This document shows positions 195 to 14,545 of a DNA stretch of 15,776 nt, one piece after another; the first letter of the stretch is position 1; each line of letters starts with the position of its first letter. The DNA is taken from positions 1-15,776 of the forward strand of contig SDNY01000085.1 in the NCBI GenBank assembly GCA_004524535.1, given 5' to 3'. Below the pieces are notes generated by a model, which did not search any database, was not told the DNA's origin, and saw nothing but the letters and a program-made list of their open reading frames with translations. The stretch is from Promethearchaeota archaeon. GTDB lineage: Archaea > Asgardarchaeota > Lokiarchaeia > Sigyniarchaeales > SOKP01. A program made the position numbers and the translations under genes.

Positions 195-752
195 TTATTT
201 AAAGCAAACTAAGCCAAAGCGATAAACATAGCGCTTTGGTGGCCATTCTATTTTTATGTTTAAATTCCTAACTGTTTTATCCACATTGATACCCACGGCT
301 TCCATTGAGTATGTTTTTTTATTTGGATATCGGCACGGCTCTCCGCTGTCATAAGTACAAGCTTTTTTTTCTCTATTACAAATTCTGCAATGCCCGCCCC
401 ATAAAACTAGTTTTTCATCATATTTGCCTTGAAATTTATCTAAAAAATCGTCAATTTCTCTTTCTAAATAATCTCGAACATAATTTTTTCTATAAATAGA
501 GGATCTTATTCGATTTTCATTCCTTTTTGGGTGTTTTTCTTTTATTTTATTTACATATGCTTCTACATCAAATTGATAATATATTAGATAAAATTTTTTA
601 AATTGAGATACTTCATTTTCTAAATATGGGGCTTCAGGAGGGCAAGTCCAAGAATGACCGTAATTAGGACAACGAAATTTAGGATTATTACAATAGGTTT
701 GTACCTCTGGATCAAAAGCAATTTGATCGAATGAGATTTCCGTATAGGGCAT
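195..752 (-). CDS. DUF2284-family predicted metal-binding protein
   Basis: Motifs CPNYGHSWTCPP, GGHCRIC..C..PCRYP and SMEAVGINV are characteristic of DUF2284. Confidence 0.85.
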   Translation of the reverse strand: MPYTEISFDQIAFDPEVQTYCNNPKFRCPNYGHSWTCPPEAPYLENEVSQFKKFYLIYYQFDVEAYVNKIKEKHPKRNENRIRSSIYRKNYVRDYLEREIDDFLDKFQGKYDEKLVLWGGHCRICNREKKACTYDSGEPCRYPNKKTYSMEAVGINVDKTVRNLNIKIEWPPKRYVYRFGLVCFK

Positions 753-839
753 TAATTTCCAATTTTTATTTGGTTTTTGCTAAAATGAATTATAAAAATC
801 AATTAAAAATTATCATTATATTTTATTATCATTCATATA

Positions 840-1790
840 TCATTCATAATAATTTTCGCTTGAATATTTTAATACAAGTGCGTTTGCTATTAAAATGCAA
901 GCACCTCCAATTATCGTATAGATTGAAAATATTTTAAGAAAAATAATAGTGTTGATGGTTGCTACGACAGGCTCGAAATATGCCAATATTAAGATATTAC
1001 CGCCTTTATCATTTTTAACACCTACATTATGTAAGACAAAAGCTAATGCTGTTGGGATTAATCCCAATAAAAGGGCAAAAATTAAATCAACCAAATTTAA
1101 TTTAGGGAGATCTTCAAATCCTAGAGGTAAAAATATTAAGATTAAGAAAAGAGTATGCCACCAAGCTAAAAAAATATCAAAATCTCCTTTTGTTTTTAAA
1201 ATTTCTTGGTTATTATTCCTTTTATTATAAATGACCTTTTTAAAAAAAACAAAAATAGCCAGTGTTAACCCAGAAAGTAAGCCAGTAATTAAACCTAAGG
1301 AAAACACTTGTGATTGTGAGGTCCAAAATTCCATAATTATCGCTACACCGATAATTGCCAAAATAAAGCTTAAAATGGTTATTTTTGATACTTTATCCAT
1401 CTTTGATAATAAAATAAAAATAAGGACAAAAATTCCATTCGTATAAAGTAAAAAAGCTGCAATTGCATAACCATAAAAGATAATGGTAAAAAAATAAAGA
1501 TAGATTATAAAGGGATAGATTAACCCACTAATTATTAAGGGCTTCCAATGTAATTTAATAGATTCTTTCAAAAATTCGAGACTGAATGAACGACTTTTTA
1601 TCATAAATAAGGTTAGAAAAAGAGTCCCAAATAAGCCTCTTAATAAGACAATTGTAAAAATTGAATATTTGCCTAAAAATGTGACAAAAAGGCCGACGCA
1701 TCCCATAAATGAACCTGATAAAAGCATACTGATTTTAGAAATCGCCGGATTGACTTTCGTGTCCTTAGAATCTTCAGCTAAATTATCCAT
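840..1790 (-). CDS. DMT/EamA-family transporter
   Basis: 316 aa with ~10 hydrophobic segments in two repeats; C-terminal motifs GLIPTALAF and YFEPVVA. Confidence 0.88.
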   Translation of the reverse strand: MDNLAEDSKDTKVNPAISKISMLLSGSFMGCVGLFVTFLGKYSIFTIVLLRGLFGTLFLTLFMIKSRSFSLEFLKESIKLHWKPLIISGLIYPFIIYLYFFTIIFYGYAIAAFLLYTNGIFVLIFILLSKMDKVSKITILSFILAIIGVAIIMEFWTSQSQVFSLGLITGLLSGLTLAIFVFFKKVIYNKRNNNQEILKTKGDFDIFLAWWHTLFLILIFLPLGFEDLPKLNLVDLIFALLLGLIPTALAFVLHNVGVKNDKGGNILILAYFEPVVATINTIIFLKIFSIYTIIGGACILIANALVLKYSSENYYE

Positions 1791-1880
1791 TATTTAGGAA
1801 AATTTATGATAACTTTAATTATGTTGGATTTTCAAACGAAGACTTTTGAAATAAATAGACTTATCTCCTAAGGATTGGAT

Positions 1881-1952
1881 TTATATTGGATCAATCCGTT
1901 TTATGAGCAATATTTTATCAAAATCAGAATCATGTGAATATATCTTCTGAAT
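1881..1952 (-). pseudogene. C-terminal remnant of a VapC/PIN toxin
   Basis: Reads IQKIYSHDSDFDKILLIKRIDPI* directly after, and in frame with, the TAG of 1953..2192. IYS.D.DFD...I.R.DP is a typical VapC C-terminus. The N-terminal ~100 codons are absent. Confidence 0.75.
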
Positions 1953-2192
1953 CTATTCCTCTAATGACTTCCACATATTCTTATTTGCTTCTATAGTATC
2001 TACGTTTTTTAATCCACCTGATAATGGATTCTCTAAAATCTCAAGAATATTCTCTTTATTGACCATTTTTTTTCTAAGATCATGACAGAAAATAAGATAA
2101 TCACCAATTTTCATATTGAGCCGATCTGCTTCTTTTTTAATCTCCCACCATTTCTCTTTTAAATCATCATCAATTATAAAATTAATTCTCAT
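1953..2192 (-). CDS. Probable RHH/CopG-like antitoxin (VapB-like)
   Basis: 79 aa. An N-terminal alternating beta strand (MRINFII) is followed by two helices. It sits directly upstream of a PIN remnant and has a palindrome before its start. Confidence 0.6.
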   Translation of the reverse strand: MRINFIIDDDLKEKWWEIKKEADRLNMKIGDYLIFCHDLRKKMVNKENILEILENPLSGGLKNVDTIEANKNMWKSLEE

Positions 2193-2201
2193 GTATATTA
2201 A

Positions 2202-2214
2202 TATGTATTACATA
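2202..2214. promoter_or_regulatory. Palindrome TATGTA-T-TACATA, candidate antitoxin operator
   Basis: Perfect 6-bp inverted repeat 10-22 bp upstream of the ATG at 2192, where TA autorepression sites usually lie. Confidence 0.45.
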
Positions 2215-2267
2215 CTTGAAAATTTAATTTTGTTTTTAAGATATTATCTTTTGGAAAAATCATCTGC

Positions 2268-2291
2268 AGGAGGTAAGTACGAGGATGGATG
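2268..2291. repeat. Degenerate copy C of the G-rich intergenic motif
   Basis: AGGAGGTAAGTACGAGGATGGATG resembles copies A and B. It shares flanks with copy B (GGA.AAAA..CATC before, AAT..AGTGA after). Confidence 0.4.
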
Positions 2292-2338
2292 TAATAAGTG
2301 AAAAATGTATTAAAAATAAGATTTAATTTAAAATTCTA

Positions 2339-2464
2339 TCATTCAAATAAATTTTTATATTTATCTCTGATTTTTTTTAAGAGTTCTTTTTTCTCTTTCT
2401 CATCTATTCTATAAAGTTTTTCTCTTATTTTATGTATCTCTTCTAAAGATTTCTCTTCCTTTAA
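2339..2464 (-). CDS. Small putative antitoxin downstream of PIN toxin (start codon uncertain)
   Basis: Reads (L)KEEKSLEEIHKIREKLYRIDEKEKKELLKKIRDKYKNLFE* and overlaps the PIN stop. EEIHKIRE resembles small partners of this PIN subfamily. The expected start position is TTA; the nearest in-frame TTG is at 2488. Confidence 0.55.
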   Translation of the reverse strand, partial: LKEEKSLEEIHKIREKLYRIDEKEKKELLKKIRDKYKNLFE

Positions 2465-2913
2465 TAAACCATTTCCTCTGGAGTACAAATAATCACATCT
2501 TTTTCATTTAATTTTTCATTAATTTTTTTAACTTGAAGCTTGGTTTTAAATTTTACTATGTGGGTTAAATTCCAACTGATAATTGCATCCATTTTATATT
2601 TGGTTGCGATAGCTATATGGAGGGCATCATTTATATATTTTTTTGGAATAATTCCTTCATTTACATAAATCTCTGCTAATTTTTCAATTTGCTCTGAACT
2701 TTCTAAAGCCTTAATCTTAAATTTCTTAATAACATTTAGTAATAATTCTTTTTTTTGCTCTGTTGCTTGTTCAATTTCTAATAAAACAATATCTGAAATA
2801 AAAACTTCATATTCATCTATTATATTAAAAAATTCTTCTGTAATTTTCATTTTCTCAGGAGCATCTTCAGCAAATAGAAAATTGATTACTGAAGTTTCTA
2901 AATATATTTTCAT
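2461..2913 (-). CDS. PIN-domain (VapC-like) ribonuclease toxin
   Basis: KIYLETSVI, ISDIVLLEI, DALHIAIA and IISWNLTHIV are PIN-fold motifs; 150 aa. Confidence 0.88.
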   Translation of the reverse strand: MKIYLETSVINFLFAEDAPEKMKITEEFFNIIDEYEVFISDIVLLEIEQATEQKKELLLNVIKKFKIKALESSEQIEKLAEIYVNEGIIPKKYINDALHIAIATKYKMDAIISWNLTHIVKFKTKLQVKKINEKLNEKDVIICTPEEMVY

Positions 2914-3085
2914 TATTATTCCTTGCTGTTTTTCAATAATAATATCTTCTATTAGGTTTTTATAATCTTCTATTTATTTACTTTAGTTAAAGATTAAAGT
3001 TCTATTAATTTATCCAAGAACATATTTTTAAATCAAACTATAAGTGAATATTAAATATTAGGAGAAAAAACTACAACCCATCAAA

Positions 3086-3109
3086 AGGGGGCACAACGAA
3101 TAAGGGAGG
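3086..3109. repeat. Copy B of the G-rich intergenic motif
   Basis: AGGGGGCACAACGAATAAGGGAGG shares AGGGGGCAC.ACG and AGGGAGG with 3931-3955. Confidence 0.7.
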
Positions 3110-3278
3110 AAATGGAGTGATATTTTAAAAACGATAAAATTTGAATCTGTATTAGAGCAGAAGGTCCTAATAAAATTTCTTGAATAAGTATTATTTTGTT
3201 CTAATTTTTTTCCATTTATAGAAAACTACATCAAATAAGATTCCAAACTTAGGAGATTTTTAAAATAATTATATAATC

Positions 3279-3564
3279 TTATAATTTTAATAAGCGAATA
3301 CCATGGAATACAGTAATAATTTCGATGTAATCAACTATAATTCTGTAAATTATTCGATAAAATTGAAAGATAATTTCTCTTACTGATAAGATATTGACTT
3401 CAGGTACAACTCTTCCCATATTTGGAAACACCTTCAATCTCTGAACAGCATCATATACCTTTTTAATTAAAAAGATTTGCATAACTTTTAGAATCACGAG
3501 CTATATACTCATGGATCTCATTTAGATCTTCTAAAGAACGTTCCGTCCATTCTATTCGAACCAT
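3279..3564 (-). pseudogene. RelE/ParE-family toxin, frameshifted
   Basis: The ATG at 3564 overlaps the antitoxin end and reads MVRIEWTERSLEDLNEIHEYIARDSKSYANLFN* (TAA 3463-3465). Removing one base joins it to IKKVYDAVQRLKVFPNMGRVVPE..REIIFQFYRIIYRI..EIITVFHG. The span is 286 nt (95 codons + 1). Confidence 0.85.
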
Positions 3565-3737
3565 TTTTCGATAATTTCTTTTGCTTTTTCATTTGAGATT
3601 GTTTTACCTTCGTCAGCATCCTTCAAACCACGGATAATCTTTTCTCTAGCATATAAATGATACATGATATCTTCTAATGTAATATCATCAGGGAGATCTT
3701 TTATCATTTGCATGACATTTTCTTTTTCAGTTGTCAT
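3552..3737 (-). CDS. Antitoxin partner of the RelE/ParE toxin
   Basis: 61 aa with LPDDITLEDIMYHLY..EKI.RGLKDADEGK, typical of RelE/ParE-associated small antitoxins. GAGGT lies upstream of the ATG, and the gene overlaps the toxin start. Confidence 0.8.
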   Translation of the reverse strand: MTTEKENVMQMIKDLPDDITLEDIMYHLYAREKIIRGLKDADEGKTISNEKAKEIIEKWFE

Positions 3738-3930
3738 AATATTTTACCTCAATAAAAAAATCGAATTATAATAATAAAAAATTATTGTTCTAATTATTTT
3801 TTTCTATAATTTAACACTCAAGTAATTTTATACAGTATGAGAGTATTCATTTCTTGATTTTTATTAATGTAAAAACTAACTATCAAATAAATATTCAATA
3901 TAATCAATAGCAAATATCCTCCAAGTTATT

Positions 3931-3955
3931 AGGGGGCACCACGGCGGGAGGGAGG
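3931..3955. repeat. Copy A of the G-rich intergenic motif
   Basis: AGGGGGCACCACGGCGGGAGGGAGG (20/25 G+C) in very AT-rich intergenic DNA, 10 bp after the racemase stop. Confidence 0.7.
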
Positions 3956-3965
3956 TTAAAAGTCT

Positions 3966-5048
3966 TCAAACGAAAACTTTTTTAATAAATGGACTTGTCA
4001 TAGCATGGAGTAAAGCTTCATAATTTAGATCAAATCTTAATTCATTCCCAACTTTATAAGTTTCATTACCTTTTAGATTAACGATAAGATAGTCGCTAGT
4101 CGCACTCATTATCTCAACTTCATCTTTAGGAATTAAACCTTTCTCAATAATATCTTGTCTTCCTATATTTAGAAGTGCTTGAGTTCTAAATTCACTTTTT
4201 TTATTCAAACTACTTTTATTTTCGAAAATTGAAGGTTCTCCAAAAGCGTTTGTAGAAAAAGTTCCTTTAGGAGATAAAGGTTTTTTTTTTAATTCGACAA
4301 TTTCTGCAACTAAAGTAAAGGTATCAGTATATAGTTCCGGAATGGGATCTTCATAAATTCCTTCTAACCCCAATAAAATAGCTGTACCTAGTCTTAAATT
4401 ATTTATTAATCCTACATTATCTGTAGACATTAGCCAATTATAATTAGCGGAGTTGCCACCAGATATAATTTTTAAATTAATTCCCAATTTATGTTGAATT
4501 TCATCAACAATCTCCGAAAATTCATTCATGTTGTTCTCATCAGGTATCACACCTGCAAAACATTTTAGATTTGTACCAATTCCTTGTAATTCAACGCCTT
4601 TTAACTTAATAACTTGTCTAACTATATCTTCTAAATCATTAGGCATTATTCCTTCACGCAAATCACCCATTTCAACCATGAGAATAATTCCATGTTTTTT
4701 TTTATGTCGGATGGATTCTTCAGAAAGTTTTTCAATAGTAGATAATTCGGAATTTAGGCTAATATCCGCATTCTTAACAACTAACGGGACATCGTTAAGA
4801 GAGGGATTTCTTATCAATATAAATTGAGCGTTTATACCAGCTTCTCGCATTCTAATAATATTCTCAATTCTAGAGTCGCCTAAATAATTTATTCCCGCTT
4901 GAACTAATGTTTTAGCAATAGTAGAATTCCCTAAAATAAGTTTAGTTATACCTATAATCGAGATATTTTTTAAGTTTAATATCTGTTTTAAAGATTTCGC
5001 ATTATGGTGGATTTTCTTTAAATTAATTTCTAAATGGGGCAATTTCAC
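3966..5048 (-). CDS. Alanine/ornithine racemase-family PLP-dependent enzyme
   Basis: GITK (PLP lysine), GDSRIENI, MVEMGDLREG, GIGTNL.C, ISGGNS and LRLG.AILLG match the ornithine racemase-like fold-III family. GTG start. Confidence 0.88.
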   Translation of the reverse strand: MKLPHLEINLKKIHHNAKSLKQILNLKNISIIGITKLILGNSTIAKTLVQAGINYLGDSRIENIIRMREAGINAQFILIRNPSLNDVPLVVKNADISLNSELSTIEKLSEESIRHKKKHGIILMVEMGDLREGIMPNDLEDIVRQVIKLKGVELQGIGTNLKCFAGVIPDENNMNEFSEIVDEIQHKLGINLKIISGGNSANYNWLMSTDNVGLINNLRLGTAILLGLEGIYEDPIPELYTDTFTLVAEIVELKKKPLSPKGTFSTNAFGEPSIFENKSSLNKKSEFRTQALLNIGRQDIIEKGLIPKDEVEIMSATSDYLIVNLKGNETYKVGNELRFDLNYEALLHAMTSPFIKKVFV

Positions 5049-5059
5049 AGTCTAATTTC

Positions 5060-5326
5060 TTATTCAGTTTCAATTTCATTATGAGCGGTTGTAGAATCAG
5101 AGTTTTGTATATCTTTATCGAAATACACATAAACCAAAACAACACCAATAATAATTAGCAACATGAAAGGATTTATCCCAATCATTGAAAGAATAAAAAT
5201 TGTGATTGCACTAGCAATTATTATTACATATAAAATGACTTGATTTTTAGTTAAATTTACAGTATCTACTTCTATATCTTGATTCTGATCCTTATTTTTC
5301 TTTTTTATTTTCTCGTCATTCATCAA
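5060..5326 (-). CDS. Small membrane protein (2 predicted TM helices)
   Basis: 88 aa with two hydrophobic stretches, tightly spaced between co-oriented neighbours. Confidence 0.7.
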   Translation of the reverse strand: MMNDEKIKKKNKDQNQDIEVDTVNLTKNQVILYVIIIASAITIFILSMIGINPFMLLIIIGVVLVYVYFDKDIQNSDSTTAHNEIETE

Positions 5327-5356
5327 TTATTTAAAGTTTCCTTTATTTATTAATAA

Positions 5357-6910
5357 TTAGTCAATTTTTGCGCCACAATTTGGGCAGACATTTACATTTT
5401 TTACGGTCATTCCACACATTTTGCACAATTTAACGGAGTCTCTTTTTCTTGGAGGTCTTAATTCAGTTATGGATTTTATTTCCTCTTTATATTCAGGTTC
5501 AATAATTTTAATTGGTTTTTTCTCAGGTTTGAGTTCTACTTCTGTGCCAAAATATCCACCAATCCTTATTTTTTTCATTGGTGGTGGAGGAGGAATTTTT
5601 TGAAGATCTATCTCTATAGGAGGTGAAAAATCAGCTACTTCAAATAATTCAGTTGGTTCCTGTTCAGCTACTTCAAATAATTCAGTTGGTTCCTGTTCAG
5701 CTACTTCAAATAATTCAGTTGGTTCCTGTTCAGGTGCTTCAAATAATTCAAATGGTTCCTGTTCAGGTGCTTCAAATAATTCAAATGGTTCCTGTTCAGG
5801 TGCTTCAAATAATTCAAATGCTTCCTGTTCAGGTGCTTCAAATAGTTCAAATGGAGGAGGCTGTTCTATTTTAGAGTAATCTTCATATTCTATTGCTTCT
5901 TCTATTAATTCTTCCTCTATTAATTCTTCTTCTACTAATTCTTCTTCTACAATATTGTTTACTTCAACTTCTTCGATAGGTGGTATTTCTTGTAGGTCTA
6001 AATCTTTAAAATCTTTTTCATAGATTGAATCAACATAATCTTCATCAAGTTTTAGTAAATTTTCACACTGAGGACAATGAAAAATATGTTTAAACCCAAT
6101 ATTATCTGAAATAGCATAGCCTGCTATACAACAACTATGATATTTTGCACCACAGTTATAGCATTTAAGAATCTCATCAGATTCTTTTCCACAAATAGGG
6201 CATAGCTCGAACTGACAAACTGAGCAAACATTTTCATCTTCTGAGTCAAGTGATATTAAATCTGCTGCCAAACTTTCATAAAAACTTTTATCTTCCTCTA
6301 AAACTTCTTCTTTTTCTACTTTAATTACATTGAATTCTTGTTTACTCTTAACTAACGAGCTAAGTACATAATTGAATGAATTTTTATCACAATAAAATGT
6401 ACCTCCAAAAGTTGTGCTTGTTATAACTTTTATTTTAACGTCATCATCGTAGTGTTCGGCTTCTCCGACACGAATAATATCAATAAATGTTGAAAATTTC
6501 TTTGATTTTATAATTAAATCATACACAGCTTGATGATACTCATCTGAACGGTTTGATGGGGTGTCTGAGAAAATTATGATTCGATAAATTCTATTAATAT
6601 CTGTGCTTTTTCTAAAAATATAAGATAATATTTCAAAAAGCCCATTTTCTATATAGCTTTGGCTTTTTGGCCGGTTATCCCATCCTTCTTCAATTATCTT
6701 AATGATTGAATCAATATCTTTACTATCATATAATGTTATTGGATTTTCTTTTTCTTGAAATATGACAATGCCAAATGATGATTCATTACCATACTTATTT
6801 TTATTTTCAATAAACGATTTAATTTCTTTGATAAGAAATTTTTTATCAATGTAATCTGTGGCTAAATCGATAAATAATATGAATTCCTCCGAGGCCATCT
6901 CCGTTTTCAC
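5357..6910 (-). CDS. vWA-like domain + RING/PHD-like Zn finger + acidic repeats + C-terminal Zn ribbon protein
   Basis: vWA-like strands FILFID, FGIVIF, RIIIFSD, FIDIIRVG and GGTFY. Cys/His cluster CSVC..CPIC..CYNC...YHSCC..CPQC. C-terminal CKMC..CPNCG. GTG start (alternative ATG at 6898). Confidence 0.75.
   Translation of the reverse strand: MKTEMASEEFILFIDLATDYIDKKFLIKEIKSFIENKNKYGNESSFGIVIFQEKENPITLYDSKDIDSIIKIIEEGWDNRPKSQSYIENGLFEILSYIFRKSTDINRIYRIIIFSDTPSNRSDEYHQAVYDLIIKSKKFSTFIDIIRVGEAEHYDDDVKIKVITSTTFGGTFYCDKNSFNYVLSSLVKSKQEFNVIKVEKEEVLEEDKSFYESLAADLISLDSEDENVCSVCQFELCPICGKESDEILKCYNCGAKYHSCCIAGYAISDNIGFKHIFHCPQCENLLKLDEDYVDSIYEKDFKDLDLQEIPPIEEVEVNNIVEEELVEEELIEEELIEEAIEYEDYSKIEQPPPFELFEAPEQEAFELFEAPEQEPFELFEAPEQEPFELFEAPEQEPTELFEVAEQEPTELFEVAEQEPTELFEVADFSPPIEIDLQKIPPPPPMKKIRIGGYFGTEVELKPEKKPIKIIEPEYKEEIKSITELRPPRKRDSVKLCKMCGMTVKNVNVCPNCGAKID
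5631..5854. repeat. 33-bp coding tandem repeat, ~6.8 copies
   Basis: 3x TCAGCTACTTCAAATAATTCAGTTGGTTCCTGT, then ~3.8x TCAGGTGCTTCAAATAATTCAAATGGTTCCTGT. Encodes FELFEAPEQEP / TELFEVAEQEP on the minus strand. Confidence 0.97.
5897..5950. repeat. 15-bp coding tandem repeat, ~3.6 copies
   Basis: TTCTTCTATTAATTC-like units encoding EEEL(V/I) on the minus strand. Confidence 0.85.
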
Positions 6911-7068
6911 TACATCTCCAGTTTTTTATTAGAGTTTAATTGAATTTAAAATAGACTTATAAAAAACATATTACTCTTTTTATTTAATTTTATATTTTAA
7001 TTAAATAGAAAAAAAATAAATTCTTTTTGATATAAGTAAAATTGTTATAGAGAGAGATTGAACATCAA

Positions 7069-8859
7069 ATGGAAGAGATTTTAAAACAACTACAGCTTTC
7101 AAGCGAGGCTATTAAGATTTATGAACAATGCTTAAAACATCTAACGCCTCTAACTTACAATGAATTATATTCAATTATTCCTGATTTATCTTTCGACGAT
7201 TTTAAAAAGATTATTGATGAGCTTATTAATCATAACTTATTAATTCAAATTAAACCTCAAAACCCCGAAATTCTTATTCAATATTTAGCCCTCCCACCAA
7301 TTAAACCCATCTTAAATTTCCATTTAAATTTGGCCTCTAATTTTCAAGAAAATATTCAAAGATCAACGGAAAGTTCATTAAATCAGATTTTTGAGGAGAG
7401 CGAAATTATTGAATTAGATTCCTTCTTGAATAAATTTTTAGAGATACGTAAAGATGTTTCGGAAGATGGATTGATTCAAAAACAAGATGTTGAAGAAATT
7501 ATAGCAGAATTTGAAAGATTTACCGAAATTCAAAATAATTTATCCGAATTAAAAGATTTATTACCAGATCTGTCTCAAAAGATGATTAGGGGACTTCATC
7601 CAAAATTTGCGAATTTATTAGAGGATCTACCAAAAATTAAAAATAAAACTGGTGTGCAAGAGAGTTTAGAAAAATCTAGTATAGAAGTTGAAGAATTAAT
7701 TAAGAATCAATTTAAAGAAATGGAAGCGCTAATTGAAGAAACAACCATTGAGCCAGTTAAAACCAAAATTAAAGATAGTTTCCAATACGTTAAAGATTTC
7801 AAACTTTTATATCTAAATGTAATAAGTAATTTTGAGAAAATAATGAATAAAATTCAACAAATGATCTTACAGAAAAAGAACAAATTTGAAGATAATTTAA
7901 AAGGCACGGAAAATCTTATCTTAGAAAAGTTAAATTTTAATATTCAGGAGTTATTTAAACCAGTTTCGGGATTTAGCACCCATATAGGGAATATAATGCA
8001 GCAATTCGAAGTTTATTCTAAAAACTTGAGCATTGATAACCTTTGGTTAATTAAGAGCAAATCTAGAATAATAGATGAAATTACAACTATAATTTCTAAT
8101 TCTAAAAACGAAATTATGTTTATACTTCCGAAAATTGAGGACTTTTTAAATATAGAACAATTTCAAAATATTCCTAAAAACCTTAGGATTAAGATGGGTG
8201 CTTCAAATCCTCATACAAATAGTCTAGTAAAGAAATATAAAGAAATGAAAGTAGAATATAAGAATATACAAAATGAAAATAGAGTCTTTTTAAAAGGAGA
8301 TAATGATTATATCATAGTTGGATTAGTCAAAGAGGATTCAAAAAATCCATTAGAAAATATTATAGGTATTGGAAGTAATTTTAAGCCTTTAATAAATGTT
8401 TTTTCTCCTATAATCGAGGCATCCTGGAATGCTGCGAGTAGTGATACTTATGCATATACGAAAGGAGTTCACACTCCAAAAATGAAAGGATCTCCCAAGG
8501 AAATGCCTCAAATTGAAAAAAAAGAAACATCTTCTTCCACATATAAGACTCCGGTTGAACCTATTAAGACGCAAAAAATTGAACCCTCTCAAAAAAGTAA
8601 TGCTTCAGATCTTTATCCAATTAATACAGCATTTAACTTAGTAATTAAAAGACTAGATACGATGTCTGGTGTTGATTTTAGTAAAGCACTACAAAGAATC
8701 GCAGATCTGATTTTAGAGAAAATAGGTTCTTCCGTACATTTACTCAGAATTAAAGATTTAATTAATAAATATAAAGATCAAACTGCACCGATAAGCAGTC
8801 AACAGAACATATCAGAAATCATTGGAGAAATTGAAGAAATTAAAAAAAAAATATTATAA
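7069..8859 (+). CDS. TrmB-like protein: N-terminal wHTH, long coiled coil, PLD-like/effector domain, C-terminal helical domain
   Basis: The N-terminus LQLSSEAIKIY..LTYNEL..IIDELINHNLL..YLALPP fits a TrmB HTH. The middle is heptad-rich. LWLIKSKSRIIDEITTIISNSKNEIMFILP fits the start of a TrmB middle domain. Confidence 0.65.
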   Translation: MEEILKQLQLSSEAIKIYEQCLKHLTPLTYNELYSIIPDLSFDDFKKIIDELINHNLLIQIKPQNPEILIQYLALPPIKPILNFHLNLASNFQENIQRSTESSLNQIFEESEIIELDSFLNKFLEIRKDVSEDGLIQKQDVEEIIAEFERFTEIQNNLSELKDLLPDLSQKMIRGLHPKFANLLEDLPKIKNKTGVQESLEKSSIEVEELIKNQFKEMEALIEETTIEPVKTKIKDSFQYVKDFKLLYLNVISNFEKIMNKIQQMILQKKNKFEDNLKGTENLILEKLNFNIQELFKPVSGFSTHIGNIMQQFEVYSKNLSIDNLWLIKSKSRIIDEITTIISNSKNEIMFILPKIEDFLNIEQFQNIPKNLRIKMGASNPHTNSLVKKYKEMKVEYKNIQNENRVFLKGDNDYIIVGLVKEDSKNPLENIIGIGSNFKPLINVFSPIIEASWNAASSDTYAYTKGVHTPKMKGSPKEMPQIEKKETSSSTYKTPVEPIKTQKIEPSQKSNASDLYPINTAFNLVIKRLDTMSGVDFSKALQRIADLILEKIGSSVHLLRIKDLINKYKDQTAPISSQQNISEIIGEIEEIKKKIL

Positions 8860-9837: not shown

Positions 9838-10545
9838 GTGAAAAAATTGAATTGTAAAGAGTGTGGGGCTGAGATCTTAAATCCTAACCAAAAGTTTTGT
9901 GAACAATGTGGAGCTAAAATACCGTTAATACGTGAAACGACAGAAAGAACTGCAAGTATTCCAACAACACAAGCTCAGCAAATGACTTACAGACGACCCG
10001 GGGATCTATTTGATATCAATAGAACCTATTATGTCTTAAAGGAAAAATATTGGGATTGGGGTGGTGGAGATATTTTAGATGATAAAGGTCAAATCATAGG
10101 TAAAATGAAACGAAAAATTTTAAGTATCCGAAAAAAGATAGAACTCAGAGAAATAGATGGAACTGTATCAGCCATGATTCATGAGAAAATAATTAGTGCG
10201 CGAGGAGCTCAAACTTTAATGGATTCTGAAGGGAATATCATAGCCCGGATAAAGAAAAAAATATTAACCTTCCTTAAACCAAAATTCTTTTTAGAGGATC
10301 CTGATGGTAATCGTTGGTATGAAGCATTAGGGAAATTTATGGGATTCTCATTTAAAATAAAAGATTTATCTACCGGAAAAATTATTGCCGAAATAGAGAA
10401 AGCTGACCGTTGGAGGGATGTGTTTCTTGGTGGAATGTTTGATTTTAAAGACACATATGCTCTCAAAATATTAGATAAAGAAACTGACAGGCGTATTTTG
10501 CTTGGCTTTGTTATAAGCATAGATAACGTGATGCACGATCATTAA
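9838..10545 (+). CDS. Zn-ribbon + LURP-one-related/scramblase (Tubby C-terminal-like) protein
   Basis: N-terminal CKECG..FCEQCG, then YVLKEKYWDWGG..ILDDKGQ..KKIELRE..GKFMGFSFKI..DTYALKI..LLGFVISID, typical of the LOR fold. GTG start. Confidence 0.82.
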   Translation: MKKLNCKECGAEILNPNQKFCEQCGAKIPLIRETTERTASIPTTQAQQMTYRRPGDLFDINRTYYVLKEKYWDWGGGDILDDKGQIIGKMKRKILSIRKKIELREIDGTVSAMIHEKIISARGAQTLMDSEGNIIARIKKKILTFLKPKFFLEDPDGNRWYEALGKFMGFSFKIKDLSTGKIIAEIEKADRWRDVFLGGMFDFKDTYALKILDKETDRRILLGFVISIDNVMHDH

Positions 10546-10611
10546 ATATACGATAACCAGATTCACGATCATTATATATGCGATAATCAGATCCATGATA
10601 ATTAGATCTAC
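10522..10611 (+). repeat. Imperfect 30-bp tandem repeat x3 spanning the LURP gene stop
   Basis: GATAACGTGATGCACGATCATTAAATATAC / GATAACCAGATTCACGATCATTATATATGC / GATAATCAGATCCATGATAATTAGATCTAC. Confidence 0.85.
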
Positions 10612-10755: not shown

Positions 10756-11775
10756 ATGTCAGAAGCTTACGGAAACTTTATGGTTTTTGAGCTTGATGAT
10801 TCAGGGGAAAGGATAAGATTATCTATAACAGAGGAAGAATTTTGTGAAGAAAATGGAAGTAAAGTATTGCACCCAGAACAAGTCGCAGTCATTGTGAAAG
10901 AAGCTATAAGAAGAATATATATTTGGAAAGGGGCTAAATCGCCTGTTCGAAGGCGATTTATTAGTAGTAGAGTTGCAAGTCAAATTCAACAAGAATTAAT
11001 TAATAATGCAGCATTCCATCGATGCAAAATAGTTTCCGTAGATCAAGGTGACGAGGTTGAGGAGTTTTTAAAAGCTTTTCGATTTACATCGATGCCTGTA
11101 GAAGAAAAACTTGCTGATATGCGATACATCCGCAACATTGATCGAGAAAAGATGATAGATAAGGGGATTATTCCTGAGGGTGGTGGACCAAAATTTGTTA
11201 AAGTAGAGAAAGAAGTAGAAAAAATCACTATACCCGCAACAAGAGAGATTCAAAAGCCGATGACTAAAACGATTGCTACTCCTTCTGAAAATATTATTTC
11301 AAAACCTAAAAGCCCTAAAATTGTTCAAGACCGCACAGTTGCCCCTCCACCTAGGAAAACTTCAACATTATCAAAAGAGTTATCAGAAGAGCTGACTAAT
11401 CAAATTAAAGATAAGATACTTAAAAATGAAGTTCCTGAAGGTTATATTCGGCAAAATTTAATTTTTGGACATATTTTATATGGTGCAGTTAATAAAACTG
11501 TGGATGTGTTAGGAAAAAAAATACAAGAAACTAAATGGGAAAATGTTAAAAAACTACCCGAGGGTGTGATAGAGTTAGATAATCAAAAAGTACGAGTTTA
11601 TTTCAACGCTAAAAAAGGAATTGTTGAGGCAGTTGAATTATTTGAAAAAGAAAGAGAGACGCCCATTCCTAAAAAAAAGGAGCCTACTAAAAAAAAACCT
11701 ACTGCTAAGAGAAGCCCCAGTACTAAGAGAAGACCTACTGCTAAGAGGAGACCCACAGGTCAAAAATTTAAATGA
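10756..11775 (+). CDS. Single gelsolin-domain protein with Pro/Lys-rich linker, unknown second domain and basic tail
   Basis: LHPEQVAVIVKEAIRRIYIWKGAKSPVRRRFISSRVASQI..KIVSVDQGDEVEEFLKAF matches the gelsolin repeat pattern (IYIWxG; QG.E..EF...F). I prefer the ATG at 10756 over the TTG at 10732. Confidence 0.82.
   Translation: MSEAYGNFMVFELDDSGERIRLSITEEEFCEENGSKVLHPEQVAVIVKEAIRRIYIWKGAKSPVRRRFISSRVASQIQQELINNAAFHRCKIVSVDQGDEVEEFLKAFRFTSMPVEEKLADMRYIRNIDREKMIDKGIIPEGGGPKFVKVEKEVEKITIPATREIQKPMTKTIATPSENIISKPKSPKIVQDRTVAPPPRKTSTLSKELSEELTNQIKDKILKNEVPEGYIRQNLIFGHILYGAVNKTVDVLGKKIQETKWENVKKLPEGVIELDNQKVRVYFNAKKGIVEAVELFEKERETPIPKKKEPTKKKPTAKRSPSTKRRPTAKRRPTGQKFK
11698..11757 (+). repeat. 18-bp coding repeat, ~3.3 copies (PTAKRR-like)
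   Basis: CCTACTGCTAAGAGAAGC / CCCAGTACTAAGAGAAGA / CCTACTGCTAAGAGGAGA / CCCACA. Confidence 0.85.
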
Positions 11776-11875
11776 AAAAGAAAGTTACCTAATTTTCCTA
11801 GTTCTGAAGATTGAAATTAAAACAAGGAAATAATATTAAATCTTATTGTAAAAGTAAAAAAGTTAAAAAATAGTA

Positions 11876-12559
11876 TTAAAGTAAATATTCTTCTTCGTTT
11901 TTATCCTCTAAATCATCTTTCTCTTTATCCTTTTCTTCTTTGTCCTTTTCTTTTTTTTCCTTTTCTTTTTTTTCCTTTTTTTCCTTATCCTCTTCTTCTT
12001 TATCGCCGACTTTTCCTCTCTCTGAAGCTTTTCCTTTTTCCATTTTTTTATCTTTAACCTTCTTTTTTATTTTTTTCAAACCTTCTATTGCTTCTTTTCT
12101 TACTTCAGGTGATTTATCTTTAAGAGCTTTAGCCAACGCGTCTAAAGAATAAGGATGATGTAAATCTCCTAACTCATCAGCTGCTTCTTTTCGCACTTCT
12201 GGATCAGGATCATGTAGCAGGACATAAGTTAAAACACCGAGAGCTTTTGTATCTCCGAAATTTCCAATAGTATCCACTGCTTCTTTCCTAACCTCAGCAT
12301 CAGTATCTGTTACAGCGGTTATTGCTATTTGCTTAGAAATTTCATCGGCAGTACCAATTGCTTCAATAAGACTGAGATCTACGCCACAATATTTACAAAA
12401 ATTATGACTGATTTTAATAATTCCACCACAAGAAGGACAAACCCGTTGAGTATTAAAATCAATAAATTCGGGGTTTCCCGGATTATTTGGGGATTGAGGT
12501 GAATTTCTTATCCTATATGGGTTTTTTTTAGGATCTGGTATAAAATCCTTTTTTGACAT
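11876..12559 (-). CDS. Zn-ribbon + HEAT (PBS-lyase-like) repeat protein with K/E-rich tail
   Basis: CPSCG..FCKYCG; three D....VRKEA...LG repeats; KEKE low-complexity C-terminus. Confidence 0.85.
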   Translation of the reverse strand: MSKKDFIPDPKKNPYRIRNSPQSPNNPGNPEFIDFNTQRVCPSCGGIIKISHNFCKYCGVDLSLIEAIGTADEISKQIAITAVTDTDAEVRKEAVDTIGNFGDTKALGVLTYVLLHDPDPEVRKEAADELGDLHHPYSLDALAKALKDKSPEVRKEAIEGLKKIKKKVKDKKMEKGKASERGKVGDKEEEDKEKKEKKEKEKKEKDKEEKDKEKDDLEDKNEEEYLL

Positions 12560-13753: not shown

Positions 13754-14545
13754 TTATTTATTAAAGATAACTCCAATCCCACAATTACCTTGTTCCCAAT
13801 CCTCAACAAATTCTTTATAATCGTAAGACTTTTTGATTTCTTTCCAAAATTTATTAACATCACAAATATATTCAGGGGGATAAACAACTATGTCATGAAA
13901 GGCAATGATTCCATTTTTCTTAACTAAGGGGGCATACATTTCAAAATCTTGTTTAACGCCCTCATAAGTATGATCTCCGTCAATAAATAGTAAGTCAATC
14001 TCCTTGTTTTTTAAAATTTTTTTAACTTGGACTAATGTAGAAGGATCATGGGAATTCTTTCTGATCAAGCGGATTTTTTGATTATTGGAGGCAAATGATT
14101 TGTAGAAAGGAATTCGGTGAGAGAAATATCCCTCATTTTTTCCAACATCAGGTAATGCCATACTTAAAAGAATACAATCCGAGTCTGCTGATTTTGATAA
14201 TAAAAATAATGTTCCACCCTGAGCTGTACCGATTTCCAGAATTACTTTAGCTCGGATTTTAGAAATTATTTTGCATAGTTCCCTTATTTCTTTCTTTTTT
14301 TGGAAAACTTTTATGTTGATCTTATATGGAAGCCATTTAAATAGAGAATATTCATATTCAAAAACTAAATTAATATAATCCTCCAAGCTTTTACATTTTA
14401 AAGATTCTTTCTTTAGATTAATTCCAGCTATATAGTTAATTAATCTAAAAAATAGGTTTTTTGAAATTATTTGATTAATTAAATGAGAATCAACTGATAG
14501 TTTTGTTAATTTTTTATAGGATTTATTAAGAATTGAATTAATCAT
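13754..14545 (-). CDS. Class I SAM-dependent methyltransferase (Methyltransf_24-like)
   Basis: VILEIGTAQGGT (motif I) and DLLFIDGDHTYEGVKQDF..GIIAFHD. Confidence 0.9.
   Translation of the reverse strand: MINSILNKSYKKLTKLSVDSHLINQIISKNLFFRLINYIAGINLKKESLKCKSLEDYINLVFEYEYSLFKWLPYKINIKVFQKKKEIRELCKIISKIRAKVILEIGTAQGGTLFLLSKSADSDCILLSMALPDVGKNEGYFSHRIPFYKSFASNNQKIRLIRKNSHDPSTLVQVKKILKNKEIDLLFIDGDHTYEGVKQDFEMYAPLVKKNGIIAFHDIVVYPPEYICDVNKFWKEIKKSYDYKEFVEDWEQGNCGIGVIFNK

Follow-up and report, generated by a model that had tools for sequence, protein, structure and literature searches.

A toxin-antitoxin islet bracketed by a repeat of a racemase gene tail in a Promethearchaeota genome, probably an integrase-less remnant of an integrated element

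In the genome of a Promethearchaeota archaeon (Lokiarchaeia; assembly GCA_004524535.1), an array of toxin-antitoxin (TA) modules stands between the gene of an amino-acid racemase and a transporter gene, and direct copies of the racemase gene tail enclose the array on both sides. The DNA analysed, hereafter the window, is the 15,776-nucleotide (nt) stretch given by contig SDNY01000085.1; it is AT-rich (28.5% G+C), and the islet holding the array has 25.3% G+C vs 29.1% in the remaining window. We consider it rather probable that the 2134-bp segment set off by the repeat goes back to a mobile element that integrated site-specifically at the 3' end of the racemase gene, lost its integrase and has since decayed. 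It would then add a new member to a known kind, that of remnants without integrase which are bounded by attachment (att) sites and sit at the 3' end of a gene; the host in this case is an Asgard archaeon. The features are located in Table 1.

The two copies of the repeat are identical at 30 of 35 positions, are spaced by 2134 bp and form the strongest non-tandem repeat in the window. Their alignment score was reached in none of 300 shuffles, and they are the sole ungapped pair of 35-nt direct sequences in the window that share at least 30 matches at distances of 200 to 6000. Similarly, in 60 simulated sequences of the same dinucleotide make-up (Markov-1), the best pairs reached 25 to 28 matches, and 30 of 35 was attained in none (0/60). 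Copy A is made of the last ten codons of the live racemase, its stop and one further base. Copy D, at the far end of the array, is in frame as a racemase tail with a stop of its own, 41 nt upstream of the start of the transporter gene. The segment is therefore bounded by repeats of the attL/attR type, with a whole target 3' end on one side and a displaced fragment of that end on the other. An earlier note on this DNA had placed an insertion at the racemase stop, and the duplication of the last ten codons and stop beyond the array, with the att-like polarity described below, bears this out; the repeat itself, which lies just beyond either limit then given for the array, had escaped that note. 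A second, 16-nt repeat (3196-3211 and 3785-3800) was judged, on a rough estimate, to be a product of chance in AT-rich DNA.

The mismatches between the two copies are not distributed as a plain duplication would lead one to expect. At the first two, the live copy encodes Thr and Pro, as do all 30 aligned relatives, and the displaced copy Ile and Leu. At the next one, the Ser of the displaced copy is that of 34 of the 40 closest homologs, whereas the Lys of the live racemase is found in none of the 40. The fifth mismatch (GTT/GTC) is synonymous and gives no polarity. The live copy is thus ancestral upstream and the displaced copy ancestral downstream, with 7 shared nt between, and this is why the mismatches are att-like: the pattern matches that of attL/attR hybrids after a putative recombination within the shared 7-nt stretch, and is what hybrid sites would be expected to look like. 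These differences bear directly on another explanation, in which the repeat would not be an attachment site but would have arisen as a long target duplication, or by local duplication, when DNA entered by another route, and the G-rich motif that follows the racemase (see below) would be regulatory, terminator-like or protein-binding. Under a duplication, the live and selected copy is expected to be the ancestral one, yet it carries the derived Lys and the dead copy has kept the ancestral Ser; besides, a target duplication of 35 nt is far longer than those known from transposases. A duplication would agree with the lack of a recombinase, with the position of the motif directly after a terminator-like hairpin at the racemase stop, and with the interval downstream of the racemase in relatives, which varies without a visible att repeat. 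On the other side, the motif regions have no significant RNA or DNA structure and belong to no Rfam family. We hold such a duplication, taken together with a regulatory or terminator-linked role of the motif, to be decidedly unlikely.

The hairpin spans the racemase stop and abuts the first motif copy. Its predicted fold has a raw energy of -8.6 kcal/mol, compared with -3.2 at the displaced copy. It could be a conserved terminator or the core site of a recombinase. Small palindromes were also seen by eye at the racemase stop of relatives (for example at about 7055-7080 of locus L001, one of the five related loci described below).

If the segment is an integrated element, the following course of events can be proposed. 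The element would have carried a near-copy of the last ten codons of the racemase, and the crossover would probably have taken place within the shared 7 nt (3984-3990 and 1850-1856). Integration would have left the racemase whole, with a tail supplied by the element (Lys codon, stop, hairpin and motif A), and would have displaced the original tail by 2.1 kb, to just upstream of the transporter gene. The cargo would consist of three type II TA modules. The G-rich motif would be element DNA, its copy A standing in the arm beside the junction. Copy B could serve as a further binding or arm site, or else be what is left of the arm at an older junction; any mobilisation would have been in trans. 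Both the site and the cargo are familiar, the 3' end of a protein gene being a classic target of integrase-type elements and TA modules being typical stabilisers of mobile elements.

The flanks were compared with those of related racemases. A search of genome contigs with the racemase matched at least 601 stretches, of which 574 were confirmed and the best 80 analysed, the source genome not being among them. Five of these 80 loci are from Promethearchaeota (L001 to L005), with racemases 58-69% identical to that of the window. A homolog of the gene upstream of the racemase (orf517) holds the same place in four of the five (L001, L002, L004 and L005). Downstream of the racemase, an ortholog of the transporter (67% identity) is found in L001 and a DUF2284 gene in L001, L004 and L005. 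The TA proteins have no match in any of the best 80 loci. Since the flanks are syntenic with relatives in which the TA proteins are absent, the flanks appear to be host DNA and the array specific to this lineage. The interval behind the racemase is occupied in the relatives by other genes, namely a serine hydrolase and an MFS (major facilitator superfamily) transporter in L001, and a D-aminoacylase and an MFS transporter in L004 and L005. By eye, a convergent D-aminoacylase-like open reading frame (ORF) of about 525-531 residues follows the racemase in L003 (8368-9963), L004 (7096-8673) and L005 (7084-8673), and a large membrane transporter also follows it in L003 to L005. This suggests a variable neighbourhood of D-amino-acid genes, lost in this window.

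Several observations weigh against an integrated element. The polarity argument is thin, as it depends on four polarisable base differences. The hairpin could be the native terminator of the racemase, in which case the flank of the live tail would be host DNA. Scans of the ORFs of at least 70 residues against Pfam, NCBIfam and PHROGs detected neither an integrase nor a transposase in the 15.8-kb window, in agreement with the earlier note, which had seen no recombinase; four ORFs of the window have no family at all. The absence of an integrase in the window fits a cis-mobilizable element (CIME) rather than a full element. No empty site was seen, the five relatives being too distant and having the interval filled by other genes, and none of the five has a convincing duplicate of the racemase tail downstream of the racemase. 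Finally, the DNA of the islet has no match in plasmid or phage collections. In L005, a 26-nt near-copy of the racemase tail of that locus lies 4.7 kb downstream (about 11763-11788) within an unrelated ORF, and is probably due to chance (5 of 1000 shuffles).

Table 1. Location of the repeat copies, motif copies, TA genes and flanking genes in the window
Feature	Position	Strand	Evidence or remark
Repeat copy A (attL-like), live racemase 3' end	3965..3999	-	Encodes TSPFIKKVFV and stop
Repeat copy D (attR-like), putative displaced pseudo-3' end of the racemase	1831..1865	-	Reads ISLFISKVFV and stop
Hairpin over the racemase stop, 10-bp stem and 4-nt loop, then T run; abuts motif A	3958..3981	-	RNA fold
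G-rich motif copy A	3931..3955	+	Transcribed strand C-rich; 10 nt beyond the stop of the racemase
G-rich motif copy B	3086..3110	+	845 bp from A, same orientation
Pyridoxal phosphate (PLP)-dependent amino-acid racemase (alanine/ornithine racemase family), intact	3966..5048	-	PF01168, E=6.4e-27
Antitoxin candidate of 61 residues (RelB/ParD-like), module 1	3552..3737	-	End overlaps the ParE start
ParE-family toxin pseudogene, module 1	3279..3564	-	Frame change near 3463-3475
PIN-domain (VapC-like) toxin of 150 residues, intact, module 2	2461..2913	-	PF01850, E=1.5e-8
ORF of 49 residues, module 2	2339..2488	-	Downstream of PIN, overlapping the PIN end
Conserved small protein of 79 residues, module 3	1953..2192	-	87 database clusters
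22 codons and stop, module 3	1884..1952	-	In frame after the 79-residue ORF
EamA/drug-metabolite transporter (DMT), host gene beside the putative insertion	840..1790	-	PF00892, E=7.3e-15

The array of TA genes is real, and the order racemase, TA array and DMT transporter on the minus strand, as first described from the letters and ORFs only, is confirmed. Module 1 begins with a 61-residue antitoxin candidate, whose family comprises 1642 relatives at E<=0.001. None of 29 sampled members of this family matched Pfam, five of the 29 matched weakly the RelB/ParD antitoxin model NF050811 of NCBIfam (best E=4.9e-4), and a profile of the family found a solved RelB in the Protein Data Bank (PDB) at E=0.026. 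The ParE toxin that follows is split between two frames. Its N-terminal part (3564..3466) covers positions 1-25 of PF05016 (E=0.0075) and its C-terminal part (3497..3279) positions 29-85 (E=1.4e-8), the frame change being seated in a run of T and A. Judged by its sequence, module 1 appears to be a type II TA module of the ParDE/RelBE kind with a frameshifted toxin, as the earlier note had read it.

Module 2 holds the intact PIN-domain protein, which scores only 20 bits against the VapC model of NCBIfam (cut-off 80). It has 669 homologs, of which some are 97-99% identical and about 40 clusters lie at 71-88%; the named homologs among those that are 71-99% identical are Promethearchaeota/Lokiarchaeia records. 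The copies that are 97-99% identical lie on short contigs, and the best full-length relative of the racemase is 90% identical, a partial one 93%. The PIN module may thus be present in other genomic backgrounds. The 49-residue ORF behind the PIN gene has no Pfam family, and its look-alike in the Atlas search (0.85) was below the useful level. Modelled as a complex with the PIN protein, it scored 0.89 vs 0.01 for the best control; three runs agreed in at least 98% of contacts, with a predicted local distance difference test (pLDDT) value of 80-81 for the partner. Of 80 solved complexes, 58 pass the mark applied to such scores, as do 2 of 110 mismatched pairs, and these counts are a rough guide here given the custom alignment; as VapBC complexes are already solved, the passing of this mark may partly reflect likeness to them. 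In the models, the interface comprises PIN residues 7-18, 41-50, 91-96 and 114-117, and the small protein is laid over the face that bears the invariant acidic residues of the active site. The 49-residue ORF is therefore likely the antitoxin of the PIN toxin, with the gene order reversed, and by this modelling module 2 would qualify as a VapBC-like type II TA module.

Module 3 is less clear. Its 79-residue ORF is conserved in 87 clusters, 86 of them (P0122-P0207) besides that of the window, at 62-86% identity and with a length of nearly always 76 residues. The named sources of this family are Promethearchaeota, except for one record whose label says no more than subsurface metagenome. The copy of the window extends three codons past the end of the family and has lost the native stop. 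Atlas look-alike clusters at 0.91 contain RHH_10 in 40%, Arc in 15% and RHH_1 in 13% of their members, so that a role as ribbon-helix-helix (RHH) antitoxin is only a lead. The fold of the 79-residue protein found no support in Pfam or Foldseek (0 at E<=0.001), a profile search of the PDB gave nothing meaningful, and the AlphaFold model has a pLDDT of 60.6. The 76-residue family has no match in Pfam, NCBIfam, PHROG or PADLOC, and PADLOC recognised none of the five TA proteins. A conservation of 62-86% is unusually tight for a presumed antitoxin. The 22 codons that follow in frame may be, from their position, the C-terminal end of a deleted toxin, with a putative PIN (VapC) likeness; the tail (1952..1887) has no match in Pfam, in a tblastn search of plasmids or in the PDB. 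The layout of the module fits a deletion that took the native stop and most of the downstream gene. A sub-threshold Rfam match resembling a C/D-box snoRNA (1871-1960, minus strand; 23.9 bits, E=0.31; gathering score 44) extends over parts of the 22-residue tail and of the beginning of the displaced repeat; apart from it, no RNA family was found in the window (Rfam, E<=1). Of the three TA modules named in the earlier note, the first two hold, through PF05016, PF01850 and the complex model. The third holds in part, as its ORF is real and conserved, the RHH assignment is the lead just described and the VapC remnant was supported by no tool. Two of the three modules appear disabled, ParE by its frame change and the third toxin by what would be a deletion of most of its gene. 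Many Promethearchaeota assemblies contain members of the PIN and 79-residue protein families, with identities of 62-99%.

The G-rich motif is a second peculiarity of the islet. No other non-coding spot in the window is as rich in G+C as its copy A. Copies A and B have in common an exact 9-mer, ACG and GGGAGG. The exact 9-mer occurs twice in the window, and three times with at most one mismatch vs 0.40 expected, whereas the 23-nt pattern with at most three mismatches is found at A and B only, vs 0.00 expected (200 shuffles). The one-mismatch 9-mer lies at 13927-13935 in a methyltransferase ORF (14545..13754), where the other parts of the motif are absent. Neither copy folds significantly as RNA on either strand (z = +1.08, -0.03, -0.62 and +0.42), and the motif has no dyad symmetry, no self-pairing in folds and no Rfam family. 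An exact 13-nt pattern of the motif is absent from the best 80 racemase loci, and an alignment scan of the five Promethearchaeota loci (about 61 kb) peaks at 10-11 of 25. A third copy, C, proposed in the earlier note, belongs to the background, as an alignment with A or B at least this good is reached by 566 of 6298 windows and its junction alignments are matched by 63 (A-C) and 23 (B-C) of 300 shuffles.

These results also decide on the model in which three cassettes were added singly and the motif is a new recombination site of an unknown recombinase. The model can point to the position of the two true copies, which precede the start of a TA operon by 173-194 nt each, to the rarity of a G-rich 25-mer at 28.5% G+C and to TA modules as typical cassette cargo; in addition, Asgard genomes are described as enriched in integrons, mostly without integrase (PMC9668308). 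Yet the third motif is background, the motif is without dyad symmetry or fold and is not found in the 80 loci, and the array is bounded by the racemase-tail repeats rather than by motifs, its distal end being free of motif. We regard the model as very unlikely. The stepwise addition of one module at a time is likewise not supported: no core of the racemase end precedes C, and the one before B is weak (see below). Of the statement that the site is neither attC nor dif, both negatives hold for the array. The statement goes too far all the same, as the insertion is at the 3' end of a protein-coding gene, and the motif sits beside that place and is not demonstrated as the site.

A less radical version of accretion in tandem was also weighed. 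An older element (motif B, PIN module and third module) would have been followed at the same site by a second, small one made of motif A and the ParDE module, which would have pushed the older junction 845 bp inward, so that motif B would be the relic of its arm. Motifs A and B are indeed co-oriented with 9 + 3 + 6 bases in common, and the two junctions align weakly over about 50 nt, including the last racemase codons (5 of 300 shuffles). The upstream flanks, compared beyond the motif of about 25 nt, are not significantly alike (491 of 1000 shuffles and 1224 of 10492 windows as good) and the downstream flanks are dissimilar (171/1000). A core-like stretch in the 40 nt before B resembles the displaced copy, with 117 of 10492 windows as good, but some four comparisons were made, so that a match at 1% is marginal. 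The stretch shares with both repeat copies a CG-containing hexamer that has only 12 occurrences in 31.5 kb, and the far junction D has a core and no motif, as predicted. On the other hand, the oldest pseudo-copy D is 86% identical to the live tail and the middle copy barely detectable, the reverse of what neutral decay predicts. The P-arm-like flank of copy D resembles neither the flank of B nor that of C (786 and 843 of 1000 as good). In bacteria, elements have been described that accrete at the 3' ends of genes (PMC5704250). Two-unit accretion is thereby weakly supported and a third step is not; we consider the two-step history unlikely, less so than the other alternatives to a single integrated element.

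A last alternative is an integron-type cassette array without integrase, that is a cluster of attC sites lacking integrases (CALIN), for which the co-oriented array of short TA genes, and the CALINs reported from archaea, with enrichment in Asgard genomes (PMC9668308), would speak. No pairs of R''/R' consensus boxes 45-160 nt apart were found on either strand of 1780-4010, and the seven intergenic stretches folded as DNA gave z values of -1.36 to +0.97. There is no intI in the window, although one is possible elsewhere in the genome. We regard this possibility as almost negligible. Three other identities of the motif were rejected. A dif or pdif site is excluded by the motif being G-rich on one strand only, with no dyad and no self-pairing. 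An archaeal origin with ORB (origin recognition box) repeats is rejected on its context, given the lack of an orc1/cdc6 family and the direct motif copies being separated by genes; in such origins, an AT-rich region where the DNA unwinds has repeats on its flanks and lies beside the gene of an initiator (PMC4010727). Finally, ARAGORN detected no tRNA or tmRNA, and no T-arm was seen by eye beside the motif, against an origin from a tRNA fragment. A bolder conjecture is that an undescribed recombinase acting in trans uses the G-rich 25-mer as its arm or recognition site; this enzyme would move integrase-less TA mini-elements among Promethearchaeota and stack them at the racemase tail. It has little chance of being right; if true, it would make an archaeal accretion system like cassette capture, based on gene-tail attachment sites and not on attC or dif.

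The flanking genes complete the picture of the locus. On the minus strand, racemase, TA array and DMT transporter are followed by a DUF2284 protein and by a possible purA end, the latter identified by an eye match to adenylosuccinate-synthase-like ORFs of L004 and L005. The racemase matches the NCBIfam model racem_Orr at 1.7e-108, yet with 362.8 bits remains under the cut-off of 480; it is full length, with homologs covering 99-100% of it. The closest relatives of the window proteins come from assemblies labelled Promethearchaeota/Lokiarchaeia. Upstream of the racemase, orf517 (6910..5357, 517 residues) is a zinc-ribbon protein of no solid family, with seven copies of a 33-nt tandem repeat at 5598-5894 coding for an acidic repeated peptide. 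Further tandem repeats of 15 nt and 30 nt (11913-12001 and 10522-10611) lie within or beside coding regions, near a HEAT-repeat gene and a LURP-one-related zinc-ribbon gene.

The mobile elements found in Asgard archaea have so far been poorly charted, and a tiny att-bounded TA islet with both junctions readable would add a data point on the entry and decay of accessory genes in these genomes. The racemase tail gives a concrete target site to be sought in other assemblies. Recurrence of the motif at comparable junctions in other places would suggest a recombinase system as yet unknown; otherwise the islet would be an ordinary relic. Among the titles and abstracts listed by full-text searches on Asgard mobile elements and TA systems, none gives an account of such an arrangement, which is no proof that it is unpublished.

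Several known systems resemble the islet. The arrays and CALINs of archaeal integrons are described as co-oriented small genes including TA pairs with no integrase nearby (PMC9668308), and the islet shares this layout. In contrast, it has neither attC sites nor hairpins of that type and is bracketed by a gene-tail duplication that integrons do not make. A closer neighbour by host is the 2644-bp integrase-less 'mini-Yucahu-i' of Atabeyarchaeia, reported to excise in an Asgard genome (PMC11529989), which, like the islet, is a small integrase-less Asgard element with a short repeated attachment motif at its bounds. Compared by their description there, the Asgard integrated elements, mini-Yucahu-i included, have 11-bp AT-rich attachment motifs that are not gene tails and ParG/RuvB-like instead of TA cargo, and circular forms of them were observed.

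The islet comes nearest to the CIMEs and to tandem accretion at gene tails, for which the islands related to ICESt1 and ICESt3 at the fda gene of Streptococcus thermophilus are an example. CIMEs keep attL and attR, have lost their integration genes and accrete in tandem at gene 3' ends (PMC5704250). The islet has, like them, attL- and attR-like direct repeats, with one copy forming the live 3' terminus of a protein-coding gene, apparently lost integration and transfer genes, decaying cargo and possibly stacked units. It differs in its host, an Asgard archaeon instead of a Firmicute, in its size of only 2.1 kb with TA-only cargo, in the extra G-rich motif and in having no known integrase-bearing relative, and is known from sequence alone. 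Behind both stands a wider group, the tyrosine-integrase islands at tRNA and protein-gene 3' ends, together with archaeal 'gene capture' of integrated elements. The islet is without integrase and far smaller than typical islands, and shares with them what would be a target restored by an element-borne 3' end, a displaced fragment at the far end and the mismatches of hybrid sites.

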